IMG/VR virus record: IMGVR_UViG_3300006990_004842 | Span: 34,635 to 98,634 of that record | DNA from: a virus | Length of the DNA stretch: 64,000 nucleotides | Strand: one strand, 5' to 3' | Shown: in pieces, positions 6,390 through 55,521 of the stretch | Layout: every line of letters starts with the position of its first letter | Numbering within the stretch: position 1 is the stretch's first letter | Translations under genes and position numbers: made by a program | The notes under the pieces: model-generated | The model's database searches: none | Told to the model about the DNA's origin: nothing | The model's input: only the letters and a program-made list of their open reading frames with translations

Positions 6390-6974
6390 TTATTTAACGA
6401 ACGTGACCAAATTATTCTCATAAGTTTGGTTAGTATCTATTGTAGCATTAGATATGTGAATGTCAAGAGTTAATCTCAAGGTATTATTGTCAGGTACACG
6501 GACCTTGTGCTTGATATGACCACTGTGAATTATCAGTCTATTGTACATATTGTGAAAGTATTGGTCTTCTAAAAACAAGCCAGAGTTTTTATCTTTGTCT
6601 AATGGATTTAGAAACAATGTAGATGACACATAAAATGTATCATCATTAACACCAATAAAATCTTGGTGCTCAGAAACTTTACTGCCATGAGAAAAAATTG
6701 GCATGTCTGATTTTACTTTCTGAGATAATGTTGCACGTGGTTCATATTCTGTGAGATAATCTGTAAACCAATGTTGCAATAAAAAAGTTTGTTGTAGAGT
6801 ACCTTGTTTTACGGGCATGCCAAAATGAATATGTTTAGATTCTCCATATTCTTTGTAGTAATTAGTAAAATTTGCTTTGGTTTTAATCCACGTTTGTATG
6901 GATTCTAAATGTTGGGCAGGAATAGCATTGTCTATAATATGTACAGGACTATTTTTAATTTTTGTTTTAATCAT
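6390..6974 (-). CDS. 2OG-Fe(II) oxygenase-like protein
   Basis: HQD...H...R triad with NRLIIH. Lies between two tRNA pairs. Confidence 0.6.
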   Translation of the reverse strand: MIKTKIKNSPVHIIDNAIPAQHLESIQTWIKTKANFTNYYKEYGESKHIHFGMPVKQGTLQQTFLLQHWFTDYLTEYEPRATLSQKVKSDMPIFSHGSKVSEHQDFIGVNDDTFYVSSTLFLNPLDKDKNSGLFLEDQYFHNMYNRLIIHSGHIKHKVRVPDNNTLRLTLDIHISNATIDTNQTYENNLVTFVK

Positions 6975-6983
6975 AATCCTACC

Positions 6984-7059
6984 TGGTGGAGCCGACAGGG
7001 GTCGAACCTGCGACCTTCTGGATGCAAACCAGACGCTCTCCCAACTGAGCTACGGCCCC
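6984..7059 (-). tRNA. tRNA-Ala(TGC)
   Basis: GGGGCCGTAGCTCAG, TT TGC AT loop, G3:U70 pair, CCA. Confidence 0.95.
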
Positions 7060-7064
7060 GAATT

Positions 7065-7140
7065 TGGAGCTCGTAATCGGAATCGAACCAATGACCTACT
7101 GATTACAAATCAGTTGCTCTACCTGCTGAGCTATACGAGC
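7065..7140 (-). tRNA. tRNA-Thr(TGT)
   Basis: GCTCGTATAGCTCAG, TT TGT AA loop, GTTCGATTCC, CCA. Confidence 0.94.
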
Positions 7141-7151
7141 ATAACAGTTTT

Positions 7152-7159
7152 TATTTATA
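7152..7159 (-). promoter_or_regulatory. T4-type late promoter upstream of the tRNA cluster
   Basis: TATAAATA on minus, 11 nt before tRNA-Thr. Confidence 0.6.
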
Positions 7160-7168
7160 GTTCAGTGA

Positions 7169-7336
7169 TTACCTTTCGTTTGGCTTTTTGGATACAAATT
7201 CATTTAGACGTTCGGCTTCTTTGAGTACGTCTTCAGTGGTAGGCATGTCCTCAGGATTTTTTGCTCTAGCCTGTAGGATTTCTCTTGCCTCGCGAACTAG
7301 ATCAAGTCTAATCTCATATGGTGTTTTATTGGACAT
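7169..7336 (-). CDS. Small hypothetical phage protein (55 aa)
   Basis: Below the track cutoff. MSNKTPYEIRLDLVREAREIL...MPTTEDVLKEAERLNEFVSKKPNER, with an AAGGA SD and a late box at 7369-7376. Confidence 0.75.
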   Translation of the reverse strand: MSNKTPYEIRLDLVREAREILQARAKNPEDMPTTEDVLKEAERLNEFVSKKPNER

Positions 7337-7368
7337 TTATTAATTTCCTTTACAAATTATTATAAACA

Positions 7369-7420
7369 TATTTATCAGTATCTAAATAATTAGTTAACAC
7401 GAGCTTTAAGTTGATAAATA
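7369..7420. promoter_or_regulatory. Divergent late promoters
   Basis: GATAAATA on minus (7369-7376) and on plus (7413-7420). Confidence 0.6.
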
Positions 7421-7440
7421 GAACATCAACAAGGAGAGAA

Positions 7441-7647
7441 ATGCCTATAAAATTTAAGCCCTCACAAAAAACATTCGTAAAAGGACGAGGAACTAGAATT
7501 GAGCATTTCTACATCAAGAACACATCGACTAAAGAACTTATTGAGTACATCAATAAAGGTCAAAAACCAAAAGTAAAACAAAAGTGTCGTAATGAACTCG
7601 ATCGTAGAGGTGTAAATTTAGTTTGGGTTCCAGTAACGTCTGACTAG
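7441..7647 (+). CDS. Small basic hypothetical protein
   Basis: AAGGAG SD before ATG 7441 (MPIKFKPS...). Confidence 0.75.
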   Translation: MPIKFKPSQKTFVKGRGTRIEHFYIKNTSTKELIEYINKGQKPKVKQKCRNELDRRGVNLVWVPVTSD

Positions 7648-8016
7648 TTTGTATTCTAAACCGTACGCCTCAACTTCACGTTGATCTCTGCCTTTGTGGC
7701 TTTTCCTAGATTCAAAAGTACACCCTTCTATAAGTTGTTTTGCATGAACTAATTCATGTGCAAAGGTCACAACAACTTCATCAAAGTCATACCTTTCGTA
7801 TTCATAACCTATGTTGGTGCCTCTTGCTAATTCTATAATAATAGATTCGTTGTCTCCTAAACAATAACCCATAGCACCATCCAGATGTTTTTCAGATCTT
7901 ATTTCTATATCAACGTCGTGATCGATGTCTTTACACAGATGATTTAGAACATCTTGACCAAACTGTTCTAGTTGACGCTTCTGCTGGAGTTGTCCTGTAA
8001 AGAAAAAGTGAATCAT
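7618..8016 (-). CDS. Zincin-like HExxH metallopeptidase-domain protein
   Basis: FAHELVHAKQ...EVEAY. Confidence 0.6.
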   Translation of the reverse strand: MIHFFFTGQLQQKRQLEQFGQDVLNHLCKDIDHDVDIEIRSEKHLDGAMGYCLGDNESIIIELARGTNIGYEYERYDFDEVVVTFAHELVHAKQLIEGCTFESRKSHKGRDQREVEAYGLEYKLVRRYWNPN

Positions 8017-46319: not shown

Positions 46320-46685
46320 ATGTCAGAAAACCCATATCAACAATTAGAATTCTTAACAGGAATATCGTACGCTGGTGAAGAATACGTTGGCATAGTAGTG
46401 AACCAAGATAACCAAATCATAACATTTTATGATGTACAATCAATCCCATCCAATGAGGCAAGAAAGGACTTCTTGGAGTATGGAGAACTTTGGTGGTGGG
46501 AAAGCAATAGACAGATACCAATAGATGTATTTTTGCATCATGAGATGAAAACATTTTTACCTGCTATAAAGACTTTTGCTATGAAGGATGTAGAAATATT
46601 GTTTGGTCCTGTAACTAGCCTACAAAAACTAATTAGAAAAAGAATTAAAAGACGTACTGTCCAACTAGTACGTAAAACTGACTAA
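46320..46685 (+). CDS. Hypothetical protein
   Basis: EYVGI...WWWESNRQIPI..F. Isolated plus-strand gene. Confidence 0.7.
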   Translation: MSENPYQQLEFLTGISYAGEEYVGIVVNQDNQIITFYDVQSIPSNEARKDFLEYGELWWWESNRQIPIDVFLHHEMKTFLPAIKTFAMKDVEILFGPVTSLQKLIRKRIKRRTVQLVRKTD

Positions 46686-47257
46686 CCCAACTGCTCAACT
46701 ATTAAATTTAACTGTGCTATAATAGCAATAGCATATCCATAACTGTGACTTTTCTTAAAGAAGTAAGTGTCGTCTTGTGGCTTTACCCAAACATCGGCCT
46801 CAATTTCTTGCCATGTCTTGCCAACTAAATGTCTTTTACCAGGTCGGATCATTGCTAGTATCATTGCTAGTTGATCTACACTTGTAGGAGGATATTGTTT
46901 TACAATATCCCAATGGTTGTTGATGTGAAATAATTGCTCTACAATGTCTTGATGTTCAAACAATTCCCAAATAGGTTCAGCATCTATTAGACTTTGTAAA
47001 TGGCTTTCACTTTTTACATCTTTGTATATGTGATTATTAAGGAAGTCGACCTTGAACCAACCTTGCTCTTCTGCATCTTTATAATCAATGGTGCTGTATC
47101 CTTCTATTGGAAGAAAAGGAATGTTCTGAAAGTACACGCCAGTATTGTGTTTTGTGTATTCACCGTTCTTCAATATACTAGCAGGAGTTGTCTTAACTAA
47201 TTTTAAGAACTCATCTCTGTTAAACATATCGATGTCTACATCAAAATCAATCTTCAT
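46682..47257 (-). CDS. Minimal DNA polymerase III alpha (DnaE)-like catalytic core
   Basis: DVDID, KHNTGVY, GWFKVDFL, IRPG, FKKSHSYGYA in DnaE order. Confidence 0.7.
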   Translation of the reverse strand: MKIDFDVDIDMFNRDEFLKLVKTTPASILKNGEYTKHNTGVYFQNIPFLPIEGYSTIDYKDAEEQGWFKVDFLNNHIYKDVKSESHLQSLIDAEPIWELFEHQDIVEQLFHINNHWDIVKQYPPTSVDQLAMILAMIRPGKRHLVGKTWQEIEADVWVKPQDDTYFFKKSHSYGYAIAIIAQLNLIVEQLG

Positions 47258-47504
47258 CGCTGAACAACATACTCCACTTCATTAATTTTTCTTTTTTCTC
47301 TTTCATTCTATCTGTGATTTGTTCATTGGTGACGAGACCACTCATTTTCATTATCTCAATCATGGTCATAACGTCACCAATTTCGTCTTGGAGATTACGC
47401 AAATACTTTGTTTTGCCTTTAGTACGGATTACTTTACTACAGGCTTGTATTAACTCGCCACATTCTTCCATAGTAATGACTAACATTTCTTCGCGTTTTT
47501 TCAT
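47247..47504 (-). CDS. MazG-like NTP pyrophosphohydrolase
   Basis: EECGELIQ...DEIGDV. Confidence 0.7.
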   Translation of the reverse strand: MKKREEMLVITMEECGELIQACSKVIRTKGKTKYLRNLQDEIGDVMTMIEIMKMSGLVTNEQITDRMKEKKEKLMKWSMLFSDED

Positions 47505-48160
47505 ATCTCTTTTCCTTTGAACTCTTCTGCTAATGGAAATATCTCTGCTATAACATCTGCCACAGCATGAGCAATATCCATATGCTCTTGTTGTGTGCCA
47601 TTAGCACCACGTAATTCAATATAATGAATCCAACTACGCAACGTACCATTAACGTACAAGCGGCTTAGTGTGTTTCCTTCCGGAAGTACTGCTCTTGCCT
47701 GCTCTTTGGCAATACCGTTGCTTACAGCGAAGTTATAAGCGTCTAAGGCGGCATCTATAACAGACTTTTGCATTTCCTGCCATGATAGTTCTAATGCAGG
47801 ATCATCACTAGGAATACTATTTTGCCTATTTTTAGGGTCTTGCATTCTTGCTTCACGTAATTCAAATTCTAAATCTTTTGTTGGGTCAGCATAACGTTGA
47901 CTAAACTCTTGGAAACTAAAACTCCTATGACGTAACAGTTGTCTTGCTATGTCTCTGGTTGTTTCTACTTCCATGCACACTGATACCATTTCAAGTGGTG
48001 ACCAATGTTTGTGTTTCATCAAATACTTCACAAGTTTTTCGCTTGTTTCTTTGTTGTTTTGATTATCTGGATTACTTACTCTGGCACAATAGGCCACTAA
48101 GTCTAATGCTGACTCATTGTAATCTGGTGCTTGTGAGTGACTAATTAATTTTACTTTCAT
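47501..48160 (-). CDS. thyX: Flavin-dependent thymidylate synthase
   Basis: HWSPLE, RHRSFSFQEFSQRY, EQARAVLP. Confidence 0.95.
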   Translation of the reverse strand: MKVKLISHSQAPDYNESALDLVAYCARVSNPDNQNNKETSEKLVKYLMKHKHWSPLEMVSVCMEVETTRDIARQLLRHRSFSFQEFSQRYADPTKDLEFELREARMQDPKNRQNSIPSDDPALELSWQEMQKSVIDAALDAYNFAVSNGIAKEQARAVLPEGNTLSRLYVNGTLRSWIHYIELRGANGTQQEHMDIAHAVADVIAEIFPLAEEFKGKEI

Positions 48161-48873
48161 TATATACCTGCTTGTTCACATGTGTCTTTAATTGCTTGAA
48201 CCTCATCTGGATTCTTTGCAAATACTTTAAGCCAAAATTGAGCATCAATAACATGCTCAATCATTTTGACTTGTTCACTGCTAAACCTTGTTAGCAATTG
48301 GTCTCCAGTGTTGCTCAAATAGATCAACCATGGGGATATTTTTACAGCTCTGATATCATGAACTGCTCTTGGAGCACTAACTAGTGTAAAATATTCAGTC
48401 CAATCAGCATCATTATCATTCGCCCACTCAGTGAGATAAATTACACTACGTTCTAATGCTCTCAATCCTGGTTCTTTCTTTACATACTGTAACAAGAACT
48501 CATCATACAGTTTATCTTTACTCCAGTCTGCTAATTTCTTAGCATTCTTAATCAACCATTCTGCAAACTTTTCTGGTTCTAAATATTCATTGCGAATACA
48601 ACTACGACCAAACTTAGTAAAACCTTCATAGTATTGGCTACGGATAAAGTCTTCCATAGTCTTTGGCTTACTTACAGTTGTGTTCAACTCATAGAACATT
48701 TGAAATACACGATAACCTAATCTAACGTGTGTCATATCTTTGTCTGCCCAACGTCTTTTACGTGGACACATGTGAGCGGCTAGTGTGCGTTCGCTACGAA
48801 AAGTTTTTTCGCACCACTTACACTTATTATCACTTTCCAAAGATATCTTTGATTGCTTTGTCATCGTAACCAT
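48160..48873 (-). CDS. Zinc-finger hypothetical protein (start uncertain)
   Basis: CKWCEKTF......AHMC. Confidence 0.6.
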   Translation of the reverse strand: MVTMTKQSKISLESDNKCKWCEKTFRSERTLAAHMCPRKRRWADKDMTHVRLGYRVFQMFYELNTTVSKPKTMEDFIRSQYYEGFTKFGRSCIRNEYLEPEKFAEWLIKNAKKLADWSKDKLYDEFLLQYVKKEPGLRALERSVIYLTEWANDNDADWTEYFTLVSAPRAVHDIRAVKISPWLIYLSNTGDQLLTRFSSEQVKMIEHVIDAQFWLKVFAKNPDEVQAIKDTCEQAGI

Positions 48874-49300
48874 GTGCTTCTGCTAATTGTTTTAATTCAT
48901 CTTTAGTGTTTATATCTAATATCATTTCCAACTCATCTGATTTGAGTGTGGGAAACAAGTCTGATAAAAACTCTGTAACCTTGTTCTTTTTCTTTCTGCT
49001 GTTTGGTGGCTTGATGTAAGGATGAAATTCTATCTTACCTGTGCCACACATACTCATCAACATCCATTGCAATTCTGGGTGCTTGTAAATCTCTTCAAAA
49101 TTTTTGTTTACAAGTTCATTAACCATAAAAATAAAATGTGCGGCATTCTTGCCTTGCACACTACTTGCATATCTCATCATCATCCATGTGCTAAATGCTT
49201 TTGTCTGTTCAGCATTTAGTCTATTATACCAACCTTTGTCTCTTTTGTCAATGGCGGCCATAACAGTTTTCAATGGCAATGCTGGTTGCTTCTTAGGCAT
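48830..49300 (-). CDS. Probable clamp-loader small subunit (gp62-like)
   Basis: F..WMMMRYAS...NE..N...HPELQW pattern, size and GK C-terminus resemble gp62-like proteins. Confidence 0.5.
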   Translation of the reverse strand: MPKKQPALPLKTVMAAIDKRDKGWYNRLNAEQTKAFSTWMMMRYASSVQGKNAAHFIFMVNELVNKNFEEIYKHPELQWMLMSMCGTGKIEFHPYIKPPNSRKKKNKVTEFLSDLFPTLKSDELEMILDINTKDELKQLAEAHGYDDKAIKDIFGK

Positions 49301-49820
49301 GATAGTCCTTGTAGATTGTAATAAAGTGTTCTTCGCCCTTTGCAACATTGTCTAGCCAACTTGTATCTGCACTGTCGTCTGCATTGTCGCTTACATACTT
49401 GTAACATTTGAAATCAATGCCTCTTTGCTGACAGGCTTTTGCAATAGCAAATGCCTCCATATCAACAACGTGAGCTGGTATTTCTAAATCTGGATCTGTA
49501 ACAAAGTTATCTCCTGTGCTACATGTATACCCAATACCATTTGAAATAGTAATTGGATCTTTTGGTAACATCATTTCTATTGCCTCAGGACACTTGCCTT
49601 TATCTCGTTCAACAAAGTTAACCATTTCATGGCATCCTTCTTTTAACACAATACCACCTGCTGTTCCAAAATTCCAAACTCTAATTGGCTTGAACTTCTG
49701 TATTAACCTAGCGGCTGTTAGTGCGGCATTGATTTTACCTACACCAGTAAAAAATACATTATCCCATTTGGCCATGTTAGGTGCCTCATGTTCTAATGCT
49801 ATTAAAATTAAGTCTTTCAT
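49293..49820 (-). CDS. mtnN: MTA/SAH nucleosidase-like enzyme (PNP_UDP_1 family)
   Basis: ALEHE, GVGKINAA, NFGTAG, STGDNF, VDMEAFA, YVSDNAD. Confidence 0.8.
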   Translation of the reverse strand: MKDLILIALEHEAPNMAKWDNVFFTGVGKINAALTAARLIQKFKPIRVWNFGTAGGIVLKEGCHEMVNFVERDKGKCPEAIEMMLPKDPITISNGIGYTCSTGDNFVTDPDLEIPAHVVDMEAFAIAKACQQRGIDFKCYKYVSDNADDSADTSWLDNVAKGEEHFITIYKDYHA

Positions 49821-50347
49821 TCGTTTATATCCATGACGCTGAATGTTTCCACTCCGCAATAGTCCTTTAGTTTAGCAGTTCCTTCTAAGAAAGTCAAGTC
49901 TATTATGCAGGCATAATTTATATCATATCCTCCTGCTTGTTTAATTAATTCTACCATAGCATTAGCAGTACCACCTGTAGCACTTACATCATCTACAATG
50001 CATATTCTATCAGTGTATGCAAACTGAACACTGTCTAGCATTTCTAAAGTTTCTTCACCGTACTCTAATGTGTATGAATATGACTTTACTTTGCCCGGCA
50101 ATTTACCAGGCTTACGAACAATGTGTAAAGGGATGCCTAATGCTAGTGCAACAGGAGCACCCCATATAAAGCCACGAGCATCGGGTGCAACAATCTGTGT
50201 TGCTTTGATACTTCTGCAATATGCAACGACCTTATCTACAGTGTACTTAAATGCTTTTGGGTCTTCGAGTATGCTTGATATATCTTTGAACATGACTCCC
50301 TCTATTGGGAAGTCAGGTACAGTACGGAGTATTTTATTGAGATCCAT
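49817..50347 (-). CDS. apt: Adenine phosphoribosyltransferase
   Basis: PDFP..GVMFKDI, ARGF, RKPGKLP, Y.LEYG, VDDVSATGGT. Confidence 0.93.
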   Translation of the reverse strand: MDLNKILRTVPDFPIEGVMFKDISSILEDPKAFKYTVDKVVAYCRSIKATQIVAPDARGFIWGAPVALALGIPLHIVRKPGKLPGKVKSYSYTLEYGEETLEMLDSVQFAYTDRICIVDDVSATGGTANAMVELIKQAGGYDINYACIIDLTFLEGTAKLKDYCGVETFSVMDINE

Positions 50348-50832
50348 TACTGAGGGAACACCCTTAGAGGACAATTTTGAGAATACCTTCTCTTTTGAAT
50401 ATGTCCACTTAAAATAACTTTGTCTCCTGTGGTAAATGTGTAATCACCTGCTTCTTGTGATACACTGATTCCTGACCCACCATTGTGTATATCTACAAAC
50501 AACATCACACCTGGTCTCGACATACCTTGTCCAACTCTATTACCAATTGCATTTCCTATTGCGACACCTGCTCCTGTTGCAAGTACTTTTGCTAATTCGC
50601 TTTCGTCCTTTGCAACACGATTACCAACGTAACCACCAGTAATAGCACCTGCGGCTTGTGCTGTTTCAACATCGCCTTCTATGATAATATCCTTAACAGA
50701 TATAACTGTACCGGTTACAAACGGACATGGCTCTCTGGCCTCATCACGTTTAGTTACTTCAGGTTTAAGACTGCCACCAACCGCACAACCTGTGAGTGCT
50801 AAAATTAACAACGTACTTAATAATACTCTCAT
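50347..50832 (-). CDS. SlyB-like outer-membrane lipoprotein (glycine zipper)
   Basis: Lipobox LTGC, GA..GG..G glycine zipper, ISVSQ...F..GD.V. Confidence 0.7.
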   Translation of the reverse strand: MRVLLSTLLILALTGCAVGGSLKPEVTKRDEAREPCPFVTGTVISVKDIIIEGDVETAQAAGAITGGYVGNRVAKDESELAKVLATGAGVAIGNAIGNRVGQGMSRPGVMLFVDIHNGGSGISVSQEAGDYTFTTGDKVILSGHIQKRRYSQNCPLRVFPQ

Positions 50833-50840
50833 AATATCTC

Positions 50841-51941
50841 CTAGAACAAATTAACTTGTTCCCAAGGTAAATCTGCTTTACCAAAATGACCATAATTAGT
50901 TGTGGTCGTTAAATCTAGACCAAACAAGTCAAACCTATCAATGATACCTTTGGGTGTTAAGTCTACTAATTGTTGAATTTCGTGTGCTAAGTCAGTTCTA
51001 ACTTTGCCATCTGCATACACATAAACACTAGTTGGTTCTTTGATACCAATAGCATAACTTAATTGTACTGTGGCATTCTGTGCTTTACCACTTGCTACAA
51101 TGTTCTTAGCCAAGTAACGTGCCATGTAAGCCGCACTTCTGTCTACCTTGGTACAGTCTTTGCCACTGAATGCTCCGCCACCGTGCGGTGCGTAACCGCC
51201 GTAAGTATCAACAATAATCTTTCTACCAGTTAATCCTGTGTCACCATCTGGACCACCAACAACAAACTTGCCAGTTGGATTGATCAAGTATTCAGTATTC
51301 TCATCAATTGGTGCATTACATTCTTGTAATGCTTTTACTACTAATTGTCTAATAGCATCACGAGTGTGTTCAAGTGGATAGTCTTCTGTGTGCTGACTGC
51401 TACAAACAACTTTGCTAATTCTTAGAGGTGTATTAATGTCTGCATATTCCATAGTGACTTGACTTTTGCTGTCTGGTCCTAACCATGTACTTGCTTTATT
51501 TCTTTCTTGCTCTAAAAATTTTAGAATCTTGTGACTGTAATAAATTGCACTAGGCATGTAATCTTCTGTTTCATTACATGCATATCCAAACATCAGTCCT
51601 TGGTCACCAGCACCAAACGTGTCTGTGCCTAATGCAATATCAGGTGATTGTCCGTGTAGTTCATTGTAAACTGTTAGTGTAGCCCAATGGAAGCCATCTT
51701 GCTCGTAACCAATTTCTTTTACTACGTCTCTGACAATTTTTTCAATTGCCATTTTGTTAAATTTATCACTCTTGTACTCACCTGCCAATGTAACCATGTT
51801 GGTAGTAACCAGTGTTTCTACAGCCGCTCTGTGGCTTAGTTTTCCATCAATTAAAAATGTTGCTACAGCATCTGAAATATGATCTGCAACTTTATCCGGG
51901 TGTCCAATACTTACACTTTCGCTAGTAAATTGGTAACTCAT
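50841..51941 (-). CDS. metK: S-adenosylmethionine synthetase
   Basis: FTSESV..GHPDK, GAGDQG, GLTGRKI, GGGAFSGKD. Confidence 0.96.
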   Translation of the reverse strand: MSYQFTSESVSIGHPDKVADHISDAVATFLIDGKLSHRAAVETLVTTNMVTLAGEYKSDKFNKMAIEKIVRDVVKEIGYEQDGFHWATLTVYNELHGQSPDIALGTDTFGAGDQGLMFGYACNETEDYMPSAIYYSHKILKFLEQERNKASTWLGPDSKSQVTMEYADINTPLRISKVVCSSQHTEDYPLEHTRDAIRQLVVKALQECNAPIDENTEYLINPTGKFVVGGPDGDTGLTGRKIIVDTYGGYAPHGGGAFSGKDCTKVDRSAAYMARYLAKNIVASGKAQNATVQLSYAIGIKEPTSVYVYADGKVRTDLAHEIQQLVDLTPKGIIDRFDLFGLDLTTTTNYGHFGKADLPWEQVNLF

Positions 51942-52435
51942 ACTAAATCTCCTATGTCTAAATCTGATACCTTGTTAAACTCCTTGACAAAAAATGCACA
52001 TCTGGGTTTCGGCTTATCCTCTAATGGTATTGCTAGTAAATGACCATTTTTTAGTTTAGGAAAGTACCATTTTACATCTTGGTAAATGTTCGTTATACTT
52101 ATTTCAAAACTGTCTGGTATCTTGTTACTTAATGGATTCATTGCTAATGCTCTAAACCCTCTATTGTTGAGACTTGTCAACGGCAAACATTCAACGCCGC
52201 CATAGTCCTCGTCACATAAAAGTATACTCCAATCCATTGGCATCTGTACATTATAATCACCAATCTGTAAACAAATTGCTGGGGCATAAAAACTTTCTAA
52301 AAAGATCAATGGTAAAAAATAAAAATCAACATCATCTGAATCACTGGCATCTAATGCACAGTATCGTAAATCATCAATTTCTTCTGGCACCGTATCTAAA
52401 TCATACGGCAGATTTTCAATAGTTAATATCTTCAT
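51938..52435 (-). CDS. Hypothetical protein
   Basis: Coupled (ATGA overlaps) between uvsW and metK. Confidence 0.7.
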   Translation of the reverse strand: MKILTIENLPYDLDTVPEEIDDLRYCALDASDSDDVDFYFLPLIFLESFYAPAICLQIGDYNVQMPMDWSILLCDEDYGGVECLPLTSLNNRGFRALAMNPLSNKIPDSFEISITNIYQDVKWYFPKLKNGHLLAIPLEDKPKPRCAFFVKEFNKVSDLDIGDLV

Positions 52436-53889
52436 TTATACTCCACTTTGGTTACAGTGTGACGAAAGTTCTGCTCCTTGTAATATGTCTTTCTTTTAGT
52501 TAGGTGTCGTCTACTGTATTTTAAGTTACTTGTTATGTCAATTATGTTAACATAATCTTTATCTTCTGCTTTTCGAATACCCCTTCCGATACTCTGTATG
52601 ACTCTTACAAAACTTTTACCTGGCTCTAATAGAACCAAATTAAATATCCTTGGTATATTAATACCAACTGCCGCAACGCCATATGTTGCAACAATAACCT
52701 TATTGTTCATCTCAGATATTTCATCATACTCAGATTGTCTATCCTTGACTTTCATACCACCACTAACAAATGCCCAATCAGGATTCATCTCAGAAAATAT
52801 TTCTCCAGTTTTAATTCTATCAATTAATACTAGTGTGTTTCCATGAGTAGACAACTCTTTAATCACAGTTGAGAGATGTGTGAGTCTATCAATGTCAGTT
52901 GTGAGCCACTTTAATTCTTGTGCATAACTGTTGAATCCTAGAGGACCATCTTGCATTTGTAATATACTAATGTCGAGGTCTGCTAGTACGCCCATATCTT
53001 GTAACTCTTTACTACTGAGCTCTCCTATAACTGGACCTAATGCACATACACAACCAACTGCTTCATGTTCATCCTTTGGTATTGTTCCAGTAAGTCCCCA
53101 ACGAATAGGAACGTTCTTAAACATACCACTCAACTGATCTCTGAGTACATCTGCTTTGGCTTTGTGTACTTCGTCTACCATAATGCAAACTACGTCCTCT
53201 AAGAATACATCTAGGTCAACTTCGGCTTCACCAGCCTTTGTTTTCTTTTCTAATACTGCAAGACTTTGCCATGTACAAATTGTATGTGTCTTGTCATATT
53301 CTTTTCTGTCACCAAACAGTACACCAACATCCATACCTAAATTCTTATAATCTTTTTCTGTTTGTACAACCAAGTCTTTGTTAGGTACAATAACAATAGT
53401 CCTGCCATAGTCTTGACACTTGTGACTAAGTACAGCAGTGATTAAAGTTTTACCTGCACCAGTTGCAATTTGTTGCAAACATTGAGGATTAGAAAGGAAT
53501 CTATTAATTGCTTCTACTTGATAGTCTCTTAATATAATAGGCAAGCCTTCTGCTGGATGATTCTTTGGCCACGCAATGTGATCAAAACTACTTGCTTCAA
53601 CAGGTTCAAAGTTGAAATCCCAACTCTGTCTATTATCAACTACCTCAACATTGTAACCTTCTTTGGTTACTATTGGTAGCAGTTGATCAAGTAGGTTGAG
53701 ATATGTTCTACCGCCTATATCGCAAAATCGAACACAACCATCCCATCTACCTAATTTGTATGCTGGCATATGATAAGCATACGGCAAAAAGTATTTCACT
53801 GCATCTGAAATCTTGCGTCTTGTTTTAACATCAAGTCCAACAAATTTAACGTTGACTTCGTCTCTAATTTCTAAAGTTACTTTTGCCAT
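52432..53889 (-). CDS. uvsW: SF2 DNA helicase (UvsW-like)
   Basis: GRWDG, LRDYQ, ATGAGKT, DEVH, TGT, QSIGRG.R. Confidence 0.88.
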   Translation of the reverse strand: MAKVTLEIRDEVNVKFVGLDVKTRRKISDAVKYFLPYAYHMPAYKLGRWDGCVRFCDIGGRTYLNLLDQLLPIVTKEGYNVEVVDNRQSWDFNFEPVEASSFDHIAWPKNHPAEGLPIILRDYQVEAINRFLSNPQCLQQIATGAGKTLITAVLSHKCQDYGRTIVIVPNKDLVVQTEKDYKNLGMDVGVLFGDRKEYDKTHTICTWQSLAVLEKKTKAGEAEVDLDVFLEDVVCIMVDEVHKAKADVLRDQLSGMFKNVPIRWGLTGTIPKDEHEAVGCVCALGPVIGELSSKELQDMGVLADLDISILQMQDGPLGFNSYAQELKWLTTDIDRLTHLSTVIKELSTHGNTLVLIDRIKTGEIFSEMNPDWAFVSGGMKVKDRQSEYDEISEMNNKVIVATYGVAAVGINIPRIFNLVLLEPGKSFVRVIQSIGRGIRKAEDKDYVNIIDITSNLKYSRRHLTKRKTYYKEQNFRHTVTKVEYK

Positions 53890-53896
53890 ATACTAT

Positions 53897-53925
53897 ATTT
53901 TATCTTATCTCAATGAAAAAGTCAA
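53897..53925 (-). promoter_or_regulatory. Sigma70 promoter (leaderless uvsW; heads the uvsW-metK-apt-mtnN-thyX operon)
   Basis: TTGACT-N17-TAAAAT, 7 nt before the ATG. Confidence 0.6.
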
Positions 53926-55521
53926 GAAGATTTTTTGTCCACCGACATTATATCCTGGAAGTATTTCAGTTACATCATCAAGTAAGTCTTGTACTGTTAA
54001 AGAAACTTCAAACTTGTCTGAAACTTTTCTTGTTAGCACAAAGTCTATTGAGGATATATCTTCTAATACTGCACCATCATATGGCCCAGGTTCTCTTTCA
54101 AACTGCCCACGGTATCTAAGTTCAGCAGTTGAATTTCCAAAACTTGCAAAATATGACACACTGCCTTTGTACTCAGGTACTCTAGGTTGATCTGTATCTG
54201 TGTATGCTAAGAATACATTTAGACTTCCATATGGTACTGGATACGTATCTTGGAACCTAATACCTTTTGTGTCGTACTTTCCTGTGTTTACATACTGGCT
54301 AATAGTTCCGTCATAGTCAATGTTTTCTTCAAACTTGTAACTGAACAATGAGAAACCTATGTAACCAAGTTCAATACCCATACCTTCTTCTGGTTGTAGA
54401 TTTGGATTTGGTTGTACCCATGAATCTCCATACTGCTGATACAATGTTGGATTTCTATAACTAGTACTGAAGTTACCATAAAGCCCTTCTAACTCATACC
54501 CAACACGATAAACTGTTGCATCTTCACTAATACGAGCACCAACTTGAAAAGTATCTCTAAAGTTAATAGTTGCATAACCACTAACATTATCTTGGTTTTC
54601 ACCAGCGTATTCTTCTTTGTCGTAAGTAATACCTGCAATAAGTTTTGCTGGTGGATAACCTAGTTCAAAAGATTCTCTGGCATCAAAGTAATAACGTTTT
54701 GCATCACTTTGCCAAGTGCTAACACCTTCAGTGAAGTATTCGCTATCTGTGTTACTGTAACCAAGAGTTAGATTGTTATTTCTAATACTGATATCAGTTT
54801 TCTCGCCGGACTGTAAACAATCATTTGACTGTGAAAACGATGCAGTATAGCAGTTGTCATAGTCATAATCATAATCAACATGTGACATTGCCACTGTGAA
54901 TCCTAGCACATCTTTAACTGACTTAATGGTTGTGTTTTTGTAATCATCTTGTTCAGTGTTATCATTACGCACACTGTCATTGACTACATCAAACGATGTA
55001 ATACTAATTGCATCAAACAGTGCTACATTTAGCAATCGGTGATCTTCACCAATTCTTACAACACCTTGATTTGATATCTCATCATTAATAAACACAGTAC
55101 CACCAAGACTACCAGAGCCATAAAGAACACCGTTTGGTCCACTAACAACTTTTACTGATTCCAACCCACTAACAATATCATGTGCAAAGTCATACCAACC
55201 TGCACCTGCATCATTAACCGGGACACCATTTCTGTAAACAGTTGTGTGTACTGTTTGAGCACCACGCTCATTGAATAATGCCGCACCGCCATAACCACCT
55301 GCAACAAATGATGTTGCTGGCATTAATGTTTCAATCAAAGAAAGATCCTGGGATACATCAGTTGCGTCTAGTATTTCTAAACTACCGACAACCACAATTT
55401 CTTCTATGTAGTCATTATTATTTTCTTCTGCCTTTAGATCAAATGCAATCATCATCACTAACATAATAAATGCCGTTATATATAATGGCATAAAGTTTTT
55501 ATCAAAATTTCCTAGTTTCAT
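53905..55521 (-). CDS. TonB-dependent outer-membrane receptor (BtuB-like, compact)
   Basis: Signal peptide, TonB box EEIVVVG, plug motifs NGVPVND and V.VVSGPNGVLYGS..LGG.V, barrel SYRNPTL.Q.Y. Confidence 0.85.
   Translation of the reverse strand: MKLGNFDKNFMPLYITAFIMLVMMIAFDLKAEENNNDYIEEIVVVGSLEILDATDVSQDLSLIETLMPATSFVAGGYGGAALFNERGAQTVHTTVYRNGVPVNDAGAGWYDFAHDIVSGLESVKVVSGPNGVLYGSGSLGGTVFINDEISNQGVVRIGEDHRLLNVALFDAISITSFDVVNDSVRNDNTEQDDYKNTTIKSVKDVLGFTVAMSHVDYDYDYDNCYTASFSQSNDCLQSGEKTDISIRNNNLTLGYSNTDSEYFTEGVSTWQSDAKRYYFDARESFELGYPPAKLIAGITYDKEEYAGENQDNVSGYATINFRDTFQVGARISEDATVYRVGYELEGLYGNFSTSYRNPTLYQQYGDSWVQPNPNLQPEEGMGIELGYIGFSLFSYKFEENIDYDGTISQYVNTGKYDTKGIRFQDTYPVPYGSLNVFLAYTDTDQPRVPEYKGSVSYFASFGNSTAELRYRGQFEREPGPYDGAVLEDISSIDFVLTRKVSDKFEVSLTVQDLLDDVTEILPGYNVGGQKIFLTFSLR

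Follow-up and report, generated by a model that had tools for sequence, protein, structure and literature searches.

A conserved pair of apt and a compact nucleosidase gene underlies a metK-containing block in a marine jumbo phage

The final 64 kb of a 98.6-kb viral record in IMG/VR (IMGVR_UViG_3300006990_004842; this stretch of 64,000 nucleotides is hereafter called the window) contain four contiguous minus-strand genes: metK for methionine adenosyltransferase, a lipoprotein gene, apt for adenine phosphoribosyltransferase (APRT), and a gene for a compact nucleosidase with the fold of the 5'-methylthioadenosine/S-adenosylhomocysteine (MTA/SAH) nucleosidases (MTAN). A preliminary description of this DNA had proposed that metK, apt and the nucleosidase gene form a three-enzyme module, a set not known to have been described as a phage system. 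What is conserved is the combination of apt and the nucleosidase gene rather than this trio, and metK is an optional neighbour. The pair probably forms a cassette for clearing by-products of S-adenosylmethionine (SAM) use and salvaging adenine, to which metK was added in one subclade.

Conservation of the gene pair in viruses

A first scan of IMG/VR yielded 21 loci, and a profile scan yielded at least 565 viral stretches encoding a relative of the nucleosidase; counts over 80 viral loci refer throughout to the best 80. The apt gene was directly upstream of the nucleosidase gene in 21 of 21 loci of the first scan and in 74 of the best 80, whereas metK adjoined the pair in only 14 of the latter. 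In 26 loci of the jumbo-phage lineage to which the window belongs, the slot between the phage gene phrog_11279 and apt was fully covered and metK was missing; the same slot has no metK in locus L005, the nearest relative of the window by nucleosidase sequence. Thus, the expected co-occurrence was borne out for apt and the nucleosidase gene, and not for metK. All metK-linked loci were inside a single nucleosidase subclade of 15 rows with 99% support. In the related genome G003, metK is located ~40 kb away from the pair, and no metK was found within 10 kb of the pair in T4-like phages.

The pair occurs in at least three unrelated genome contexts. In the jumbo lineage (~45 loci), the order is TonB-dependent receptor, helicase, phrog_11279, optional inserts, apt, nucleosidase, phrog_11758, phrog_11058 and thyX. 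In T4-like phages (25 loci), the order is nrdA-nrdB-apt-nucleosidase. This group includes C48C1, a complete genome of 156 kb assigned to Kyanoviridae, which is the only deposited phage with the pair and also the only one in which either gene is a true phage gene. The third context, found in two of the best 80 loci, has the order AOX, dCMP deaminase, apt, nucleosidase and NT5C-like gene; in L018 and L127, the pair is placed between the deaminase and an NT5C-like 5'-nucleotidase. In L018, the protein encoded directly downstream of the nucleosidase (positions 6732-7835, 367 aa) has a 5'-nucleotidase domain of the NT5C type and faintly resembles (24 bits) CntL, a SAM aminobutyryl-transferase which releases MTA. 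One viral subclade has no apt next to the nucleosidase gene (L180, L181, L186, L187, L189 and L191).

Viral apt genes form two deep clades with ~40% identity to each other (e.g., L006:4925-5413, L003:2156-2677 and L018:5307-5834 versus 49817-50347 of the window). These clades are shuffled relative to both the nucleosidase tree and the genome backbone, which argues for an exchange of apt alleles between phages by recombination. Between L003 and the window, for instance, the nucleosidases are 100% identical and the apt products 61%.

Assignment of the encoded proteins

The four open reading frames (ORFs) were confirmed on the minus strand, abutting or overlapping as had been described. Of the gene models, the ORFs were retained, whereas the upstream TTG starts were not; translation probably begins at an ATG in both cases, at 50347 for apt and at 49820 for the nucleosidase gene. 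The enzyme identities, their chemistry and the intact catalytic motifs given in the preliminary description proved sound, as judged by family scores, readable motifs and conserved residues.

The product of apt reached 184 bits with the equivalog model NF002636 (cut-off 125) and was just below the cut-off of TIGR01090 (175 versus 186 bits). Five divergent viral apt alleles also exceeded the NF002636 cut-off. The sequence contains VDDVSATGGT, LEYG and ARGF, which we take, with the E. coli APRT in mind, to be motifs of this enzyme, the first being the loop for phosphoribosyl pyrophosphate (PRPP) and the second the flexible loop.

MetK scored 426 bits with the equivalog model TIGR01034 (cut-off 309), matched all three S-AdoMet_synt domains (PF00438, PF02772 and PF02773) and belongs to phrog_1569. 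The substrate and metal motifs GHPDK, GAGDQG, DxGxTGRKII, GGGAFSGKD and KVDRS, taken as quoted in 10.1101/2021.01.05.425418, are all readable in the translation, as is DGDTGLTGRKII.

The lipoprotein between metK and apt carries the lipobox LTGC and weakly matches a glycine-zipper family (PF05433, 18.7 bits). Only seven homologous protein clusters were found, one of which is named SlyB by JGI, and among the related loci the gene is confined to L003 and L004. It is an unrelated insertion outside the enzyme set. Two other optional inserts were seen between phrog_11279 and metK or apt (L006:2597-3391 and L006:3394-3828; also in L008, L017, L115, L117, L120 and L125). The first encodes a very acidic protein of ~250-265 aa without a family and is present in 34 of 80 loci; the second encodes a P-loop kinase of 144 aa with similarity to APS kinase or AAA_33 and is directly upstream of metK in five loci.

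For the nucleosidase, PF01048 (PNP_UDP_1) matched with 54.6 bits, and the best curated model was PRK05634 ('nucleosidase'). An AF2 model built on 94 homologues had a pLDDT of 96.6, and the best Foldseek matches listed from the PDB were MTAN or futalosine hydrolase throughout (TMq 0.80-0.86). Across the 94 family members, E12, D104, F106, M121, E122, K141, D145 and W155 are invariant or nearly so. They correspond to Glu12, Asp149, Phe151, Met173, Glu174, Arg193 (Lys here), Asp197 and Phe207 (Trp here) of the E. coli enzyme, the Glu12 equivalent being placed by the ALExE motif and its near-invariance. Hence, the MTAN fold occurs together with the equivalents of Glu12, Asp197 and Glu174.

A homodimer was modelled with an ipSAE of 0.88 (best control 0.15) and a pLDDT of 93, and three runs agreed in 100% of contacts. 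Among proteins solved as pairs, 20 of 30 attain the mark applied to ipSAE, and among those solved as single chains, 1 of 23 does so; as MTAN dimers have already been solved, the high value may only mirror the likeness to them. Residues 73-88 belong to the modelled interface; in E. coli MTAN, this loop lines the 5'-alkylthio pocket of the neighbouring subunit.

The gene pair in bacteria

Genes for the compact nucleosidase are common among bacteria, marine and otherwise, including Pelagibacter, SAR86, SAR116, Rhodobacteraceae, SAR202, Planctomycetota, Bdellovibrio and Nitrobacteraceae, and apt was adjacent in 33 of 80 bacterial loci. The pairing with apt was seen in SAR11, SAR86, SAR116, Bdellovibrio and one verrucomicrobium. 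In the genomes of SAR11, SAR86 and SAR116, the compact MTAN is the only such enzyme. A complete Pelagibacter genome has a divergently oriented apt, the nucleosidase gene and then a speD-speE fusion (SAM decarboxylase-spermidine synthase), i.e., an MTA-producing enzyme pair. This context gives indirect support for MTA as a substrate. Both activities may also be joined in one chain: the metagenomic protein P0223 (680 aa) consists of an APRT (residues 4-154; 39% identity to the protein of the window), a compact nucleosidase (residues 175-349; 36% identity) and ~330 residues without Pfam match. Since the pairing already is a cellular arrangement, it points to ordinary salvage and not to a phage invention.

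In trees computed with FastTree and IQ-TREE, 41 viral nucleosidase representatives form one clade with the cellular Chthoniobacteraceae locus L026 (SH-aLRT 100). In L026, apt and the nucleosidase gene are co-directional and overlap as in phages, and its apt groups with the viral apt genes. As both genes group with viral ones, the locus is consistent with both genes having moved together, in either direction. The flanks of L026 are cellular, and the idea of a phage contig binned into a metagenome-assembled genome (MAG) was rejected. Likewise, the proximity of apt and the nucleosidase gene to metK in Bdellovibrio was rejected as an operon and, hence, as a cellular precedent for the trio, because hpf and a histidine kinase gene intervene.

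Evaluation of possible functions

We infer the substrates of the nucleosidase and the benefit to the phage from sequence. In the favoured reading, the nucleosidase would be a homodimer with a minimal version of the MTA/SAH nucleosidase fold, hydrolysing the N-ribosyl bond of 5'-substituted adenosines, namely MTA, 5'-deoxyadenosine and possibly SAH. This cleavage would remove product inhibitors and free adenine, which APRT would convert with PRPP to AMP, and the AMP could re-enter the ATP and dATP pools used by the neighbouring nucleotide-metabolism genes. In one subclade of the jumbo lineage, including the window, metK would have been inserted just upstream and would boost SAM synthesis. With metK, the three enzymes could run as the adenosyl loop drawn in the preliminary description.

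A number of observations weigh against by-product clearance. The nucleosidase is below all curated MTAN cut-offs (TIGR01704, 39.6 versus 73.8; NF004079, 56.3 versus 169; PRK05634, 95.3 versus 129). It has 175 aa and thus neither the full-length architecture of MtnN (~230 aa) nor, in the subclade of the window, the conserved 5'-alkylthio pocket loop: the N-terminal beta-hairpin (~residues 15-45 of E. coli MtnN) and one helix (near residues 120-132) of the canonical enzyme are absent, and the loop reads ERDKGKCPE..LPKDP instead of QRDM..LG..GQTPF. The rewritten loop (ERDKGKCPEAIEMMLPKDP; residues 72-87, window positions 49570-49620) is found in the 15-row subclade holding all metK-linked loci, whereas all other viral and cellular members retain the QRDM..LG..GQTPF form. 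The specificity of the nucleosidase could therefore differ in this subclade. As the loop change and metK are in the same subclade and count as a single evolutionary event, their link may be a coincidence. Furthermore, neither metK nor speD was found anywhere in the complete C48C1 genome, which has the pair.

A radical-SAM enzyme, speD, speE and three methyltransferase families were searched for and none was found in the 98.6-kb contig; because the contig is only ~27% of the genome, this absence is weak evidence. In favour of by-product clearance, a radical-SAM gene was present in 5 of 5 relatives tested, a count not set against control phages that lack the pair. The window is colinear with the relative G005 up to the contig end, and ~12 kb past the point matching this end, G005 carries a 622-aa B12-binding radical-SAM methyltransferase-like gene (35.5-37.4 kb of its contig, L109:1062-2930; 218 bits with the KedN5 family, below cut-off). 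In L181:2769-6550, a nucleosidase gene without apt is located ~2 kb from a B12 radical-SAM homologue. Two related jumbo phages, G003 (L106:651-1827) and G002 (L107), have an agmatinase gene beside one for a speD-like pyruvoyl enzyme, which looks like a route from arginine via agmatine to putrescine rather than SAM decarboxylation. Since speD homologues of marine phages are often arginine or ornithine decarboxylases (PMC9992855), the speD-like genes cannot be counted as MTA sources, and those of G002 and G003 were rejected as proof of phage MTA production. No speE was found in the relatives examined.

An alternative, which we consider possible but unlikely, is general purine-nucleoside salvage. 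A broad nucleosidase acting on adenosine and deoxyadenosine would, together with APRT, supply AMP for the phage ribonucleotide reductase (RNR), the nucleosides would come from host RNA or DNA turnover or from imported purines, and SAM by-products would be minor substrates. The pair is always found among nucleotide-metabolism genes (nrdA-nrdB; dCMP deaminase and the NT5C-like gene; thyX and mazG), most carriers have no metK nearby, and the remodelled 5'-pocket loop of the window's subclade would also suit a broader enzyme. A comparable recycling of deoxyribonucleotides by SurE, MTAP and apt has been proposed for Prochlorococcus (PMC11698098). On the other hand, the fold and active site of the nucleosidase are nearest to MTAN, and the Pelagibacter context ties the family to an MTA-producing enzyme. 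E. coli MTAN works poorly on unsubstituted adenosine, and phages usually reuse deoxynucleoside monophosphates directly, bypassing the free base; both count against general salvage.

The preliminary description had also considered that the genes rebuild adenylate or SAM pools destroyed by Cap17- or Detocs-type ATP nucleosidases or by SAM-targeting systems. By analogy, this would be conceivable: ATP-nucleosidase effectors yield adenine, the substrate of APRT (bioRxiv 10.1101/2023.01.24.525353), phage NAD+ reconstitution provides a precedent (10.1101/2024.02.11.579819; PMC13464706), and the viral genes form a clade of their own, apart from nearly all cellular ones. Nevertheless, such a role is very improbable, and nothing in the genomic context hints at it. 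Re-using the adenine of ATP nucleosidases needs APRT alone, yet its constant partner is an adenine-releasing nucleosidase. Free-living bacteria have the same pair as a housekeeping arrangement, and its neighbours in phages are nucleotide-metabolism genes instead of anti-defence genes. The nucleosidase did not match the PADLOC models of the PNP-domain effectors Cap17 and Detocs DtcC beyond a faint, superfamily-level similarity (PDLC00759, 20 bits over 37 residues), and no report of such a pathway was found in a literature search. A narrower version is a long shot as well: in the metK subclade, the nucleosidase with the rewritten loop might have shifted its substrate and, with APRT and MetK, form an adenylate/SAM reconstitution route against ATP- or SAM-destroying host systems. 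Such a route would be the adenine counterpart of the NAD+ reconstitution pathways.

Origin and assembly of the block

CheckV estimated a completeness of ~27% for the 98.6-kb record, which is thus a fragment of a jumbo phage; contigs of its relatives reach 320-340 kb. The record is classed as 'provirus' in IMG/VR, and all window content examined was phage-like. Cellular-looking auxiliary metabolic genes (AMGs), i.e., those for the TonB-dependent receptor, MetK, APRT and the lipoprotein, may have caused this label.

Both the label and the cellular look of these four genes would fit host contamination or a chimeric assembly. Against this, translational coupling ties the genes of the block to phage-family genes at either end: the block from metK to the nucleosidase gene is flanked by phrog_11279 and the uvsW-like helicase gene on one side and by phrog_11758 and phrog_11058 on the other. 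The identical gene order recurs on dozens of independent IMG/VR viral contigs. In two further marine metagenome runs, contigs extend over 48042-51074 and 51048-53900, bridging the junctions and differing by 0 to 3 mismatches, and the composition is even along the whole window (GC ~36%). Contamination or chimerism is thereby effectively refuted, and the block is confirmed as correctly assembled phage DNA; given the flanks, the recurrent order and the bridging contigs, the 'provirus' label does not make it host DNA. None of the listed holders of the block is recorded as RNA. In two runs with a cDNA or RNA-Seq label, only short fragments of apt, metK and the helicase gene are present, and these runs may be DNA.

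Transcription unit and neighbouring genes

The block is part of a minus-strand unit bracketed by terminator-like hairpins. Its genes are listed in transcriptional order in Table 1.

Table 1. Genes and terminator-like hairpins of the minus-strand unit (positions in the window)
Feature	Position	Strand	Evidence or remarks
Terminator-like hairpin, upstream of TonB-dependent receptor gene	55573-55548	-	
TonB-dependent receptor, BtuB-like, first gene of unit	53905..55521	-	Plug and TonB_dep_Rec_b-barrel domains; TIGR01779 match far below cut-off (55 bits)
uvsW-like DNA helicase	52432..53889	-	ResIII, DEAD and Helicase_C domains; phrog_16
Phage gene phrog_11279, function not assigned, conserved upstream neighbour	51938..52435	-	E 2e-49
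metK, methionine adenosyltransferase, 366 aa	50841..51941	-	TIGR01034, Pfam, phrog_1569
SlyB-like outer-membrane lipoprotein, 161 aa	50347..50832	-	Lipobox, weak PF05433
apt, adenine phosphoribosyltransferase, 176 aa from ATG at 50347	49817..50347	-	NF002636
Compact MTAN-fold nucleosidase, 175 aa from ATG at 49820	49293..49820	-	PF01048, fold
Phage gene phrog_11758, 8-nt overlap with nucleosidase stop	48830..49300	-	Syntenic in 45/80 viral loci
Phage gene phrog_11058	48160..48873	-	E 2e-63; syntenic in 44/80 viral loci
thyX, flavin-dependent thymidylate synthase	47501..48160	-	PF02511, E 2e-42
MazG-like nucleotide pyrophosphohydrolase	47247..47504	-	PF03819 24 bits
ORF, last of unit	46682-47257	-	
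Terminator-like hairpin, end of unit	46652..46673	-	

The start codon (ATG) of metK overlaps the stop codon of the upstream gene, metK and the lipoprotein gene are separated by 8 nt, and the following junctions are TAATG (lipoprotein/apt) and ATGA (apt/nucleosidase). The gene of phrog_11279 is syntenic in 37 of 80 viral loci. For the helicase gene, blastn matches were obtained in the jumbo phages PA5oct, Phosso and Atu_ph07.

In a scan for σ70 promoters, sites were no commoner than in shuffled sequence. A perfect extended σ70 consensus (TTGACA, 17 nt, TG, TATAAT) is present at 49251-49223 (minus strand), inside the gene of phrog_11758, a short distance past the nucleosidase gene. The BtuB-like receptor gene heading the unit is kept in 31 of 80 related loci; phage-driven cobalamin uptake through this receptor may be connected with an enzyme that depends on cobalamin and SAM.

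Comparison with known systems and significance

Catalogues of viral AMGs already contain both metK and mtnN (bioRxiv 10.1101/2021.01.05.425418; PMC7678222), and the trio, whose apt-nucleosidase pairing is cellular, cannot be regarded as a new phage system. Kieft et al. (10.1101/2021.01.05.425418) described the SAM-cycle AMGs metK, mtnN, dcm, ahcY and luxS, likewise including phage MetK and an MTA/SAH-type nucleosidase, and read them as modulation of the SAM cycle. In the Lake Baikal phage population VP_139 (PMC7678222), metK, MTAN, methyltransferases and radical SAM occur together. Neither study mentions adenine or apt, whereas here the nucleosidase gene is tightly and consistently paired with apt and not with metK. 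No paper on a pairing of the nucleosidase with apt was found in the literature search.

With bacterial MtnN/Pfs (EC 3.2.2.9; E. coli 1jys/1nc1, H. pylori 4yo8/5cce), the phage nucleosidase shares the fold and the catalytic set, namely the water-activating Glu12, the N7 proton donor Asp197, the ribose contacts Met173/Glu174 and the adenine-stacking aromatics, and in its modelled homodimer the pocket loop is part of the interface. It differs by being ~55 residues shorter (MtnN has ~232 aa), by an identity of only ~24% and by the replacement of Arg193, in addition to the rewritten loop. The bacterial pair in Pelagibacter, SAR86, SAR116, Bdellovibrio and the Chthoniobacteraceae MAG (PRK05634) has the same short architecture (36-49% identity) and, in the loci counted above, the same adjacency to apt. 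However, the phage protein scores below the PRK05634 cut-off and the viral copies form a clade of their own; in SAR11, apt is divergent and speD-speE follows the nucleosidase gene, whereas the phage neighbours are RNR, thyX and helicase genes. NARP1, NARP2 and NARP3 resemble the phage pair in being small sets of salvage enzymes which rebuild a nucleotide cofactor from breakdown products. For these pathways, counter-defence was shown experimentally, whereas the phage pair shows no link to immunity and is housekeeping in cells.

The cassette is a sensible but fairly ordinary metabolic add-on and not a new kind of system. In marine phages, the unit under selection is apt plus a minimal MTAN and not the trio with metK, and a purine-base salvage step is hereby added to the known repertoire of nucleotide and SAM-cycle AMGs. 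Recovery of adenine spares nitrogen as well as the de novo synthesis of purines, and would be something that large phages of nutrient-poor oceans pay to keep. The compact MTAN form a family that is still uncharacterised, and the annotation of one enzyme would extend to thousands of genes.

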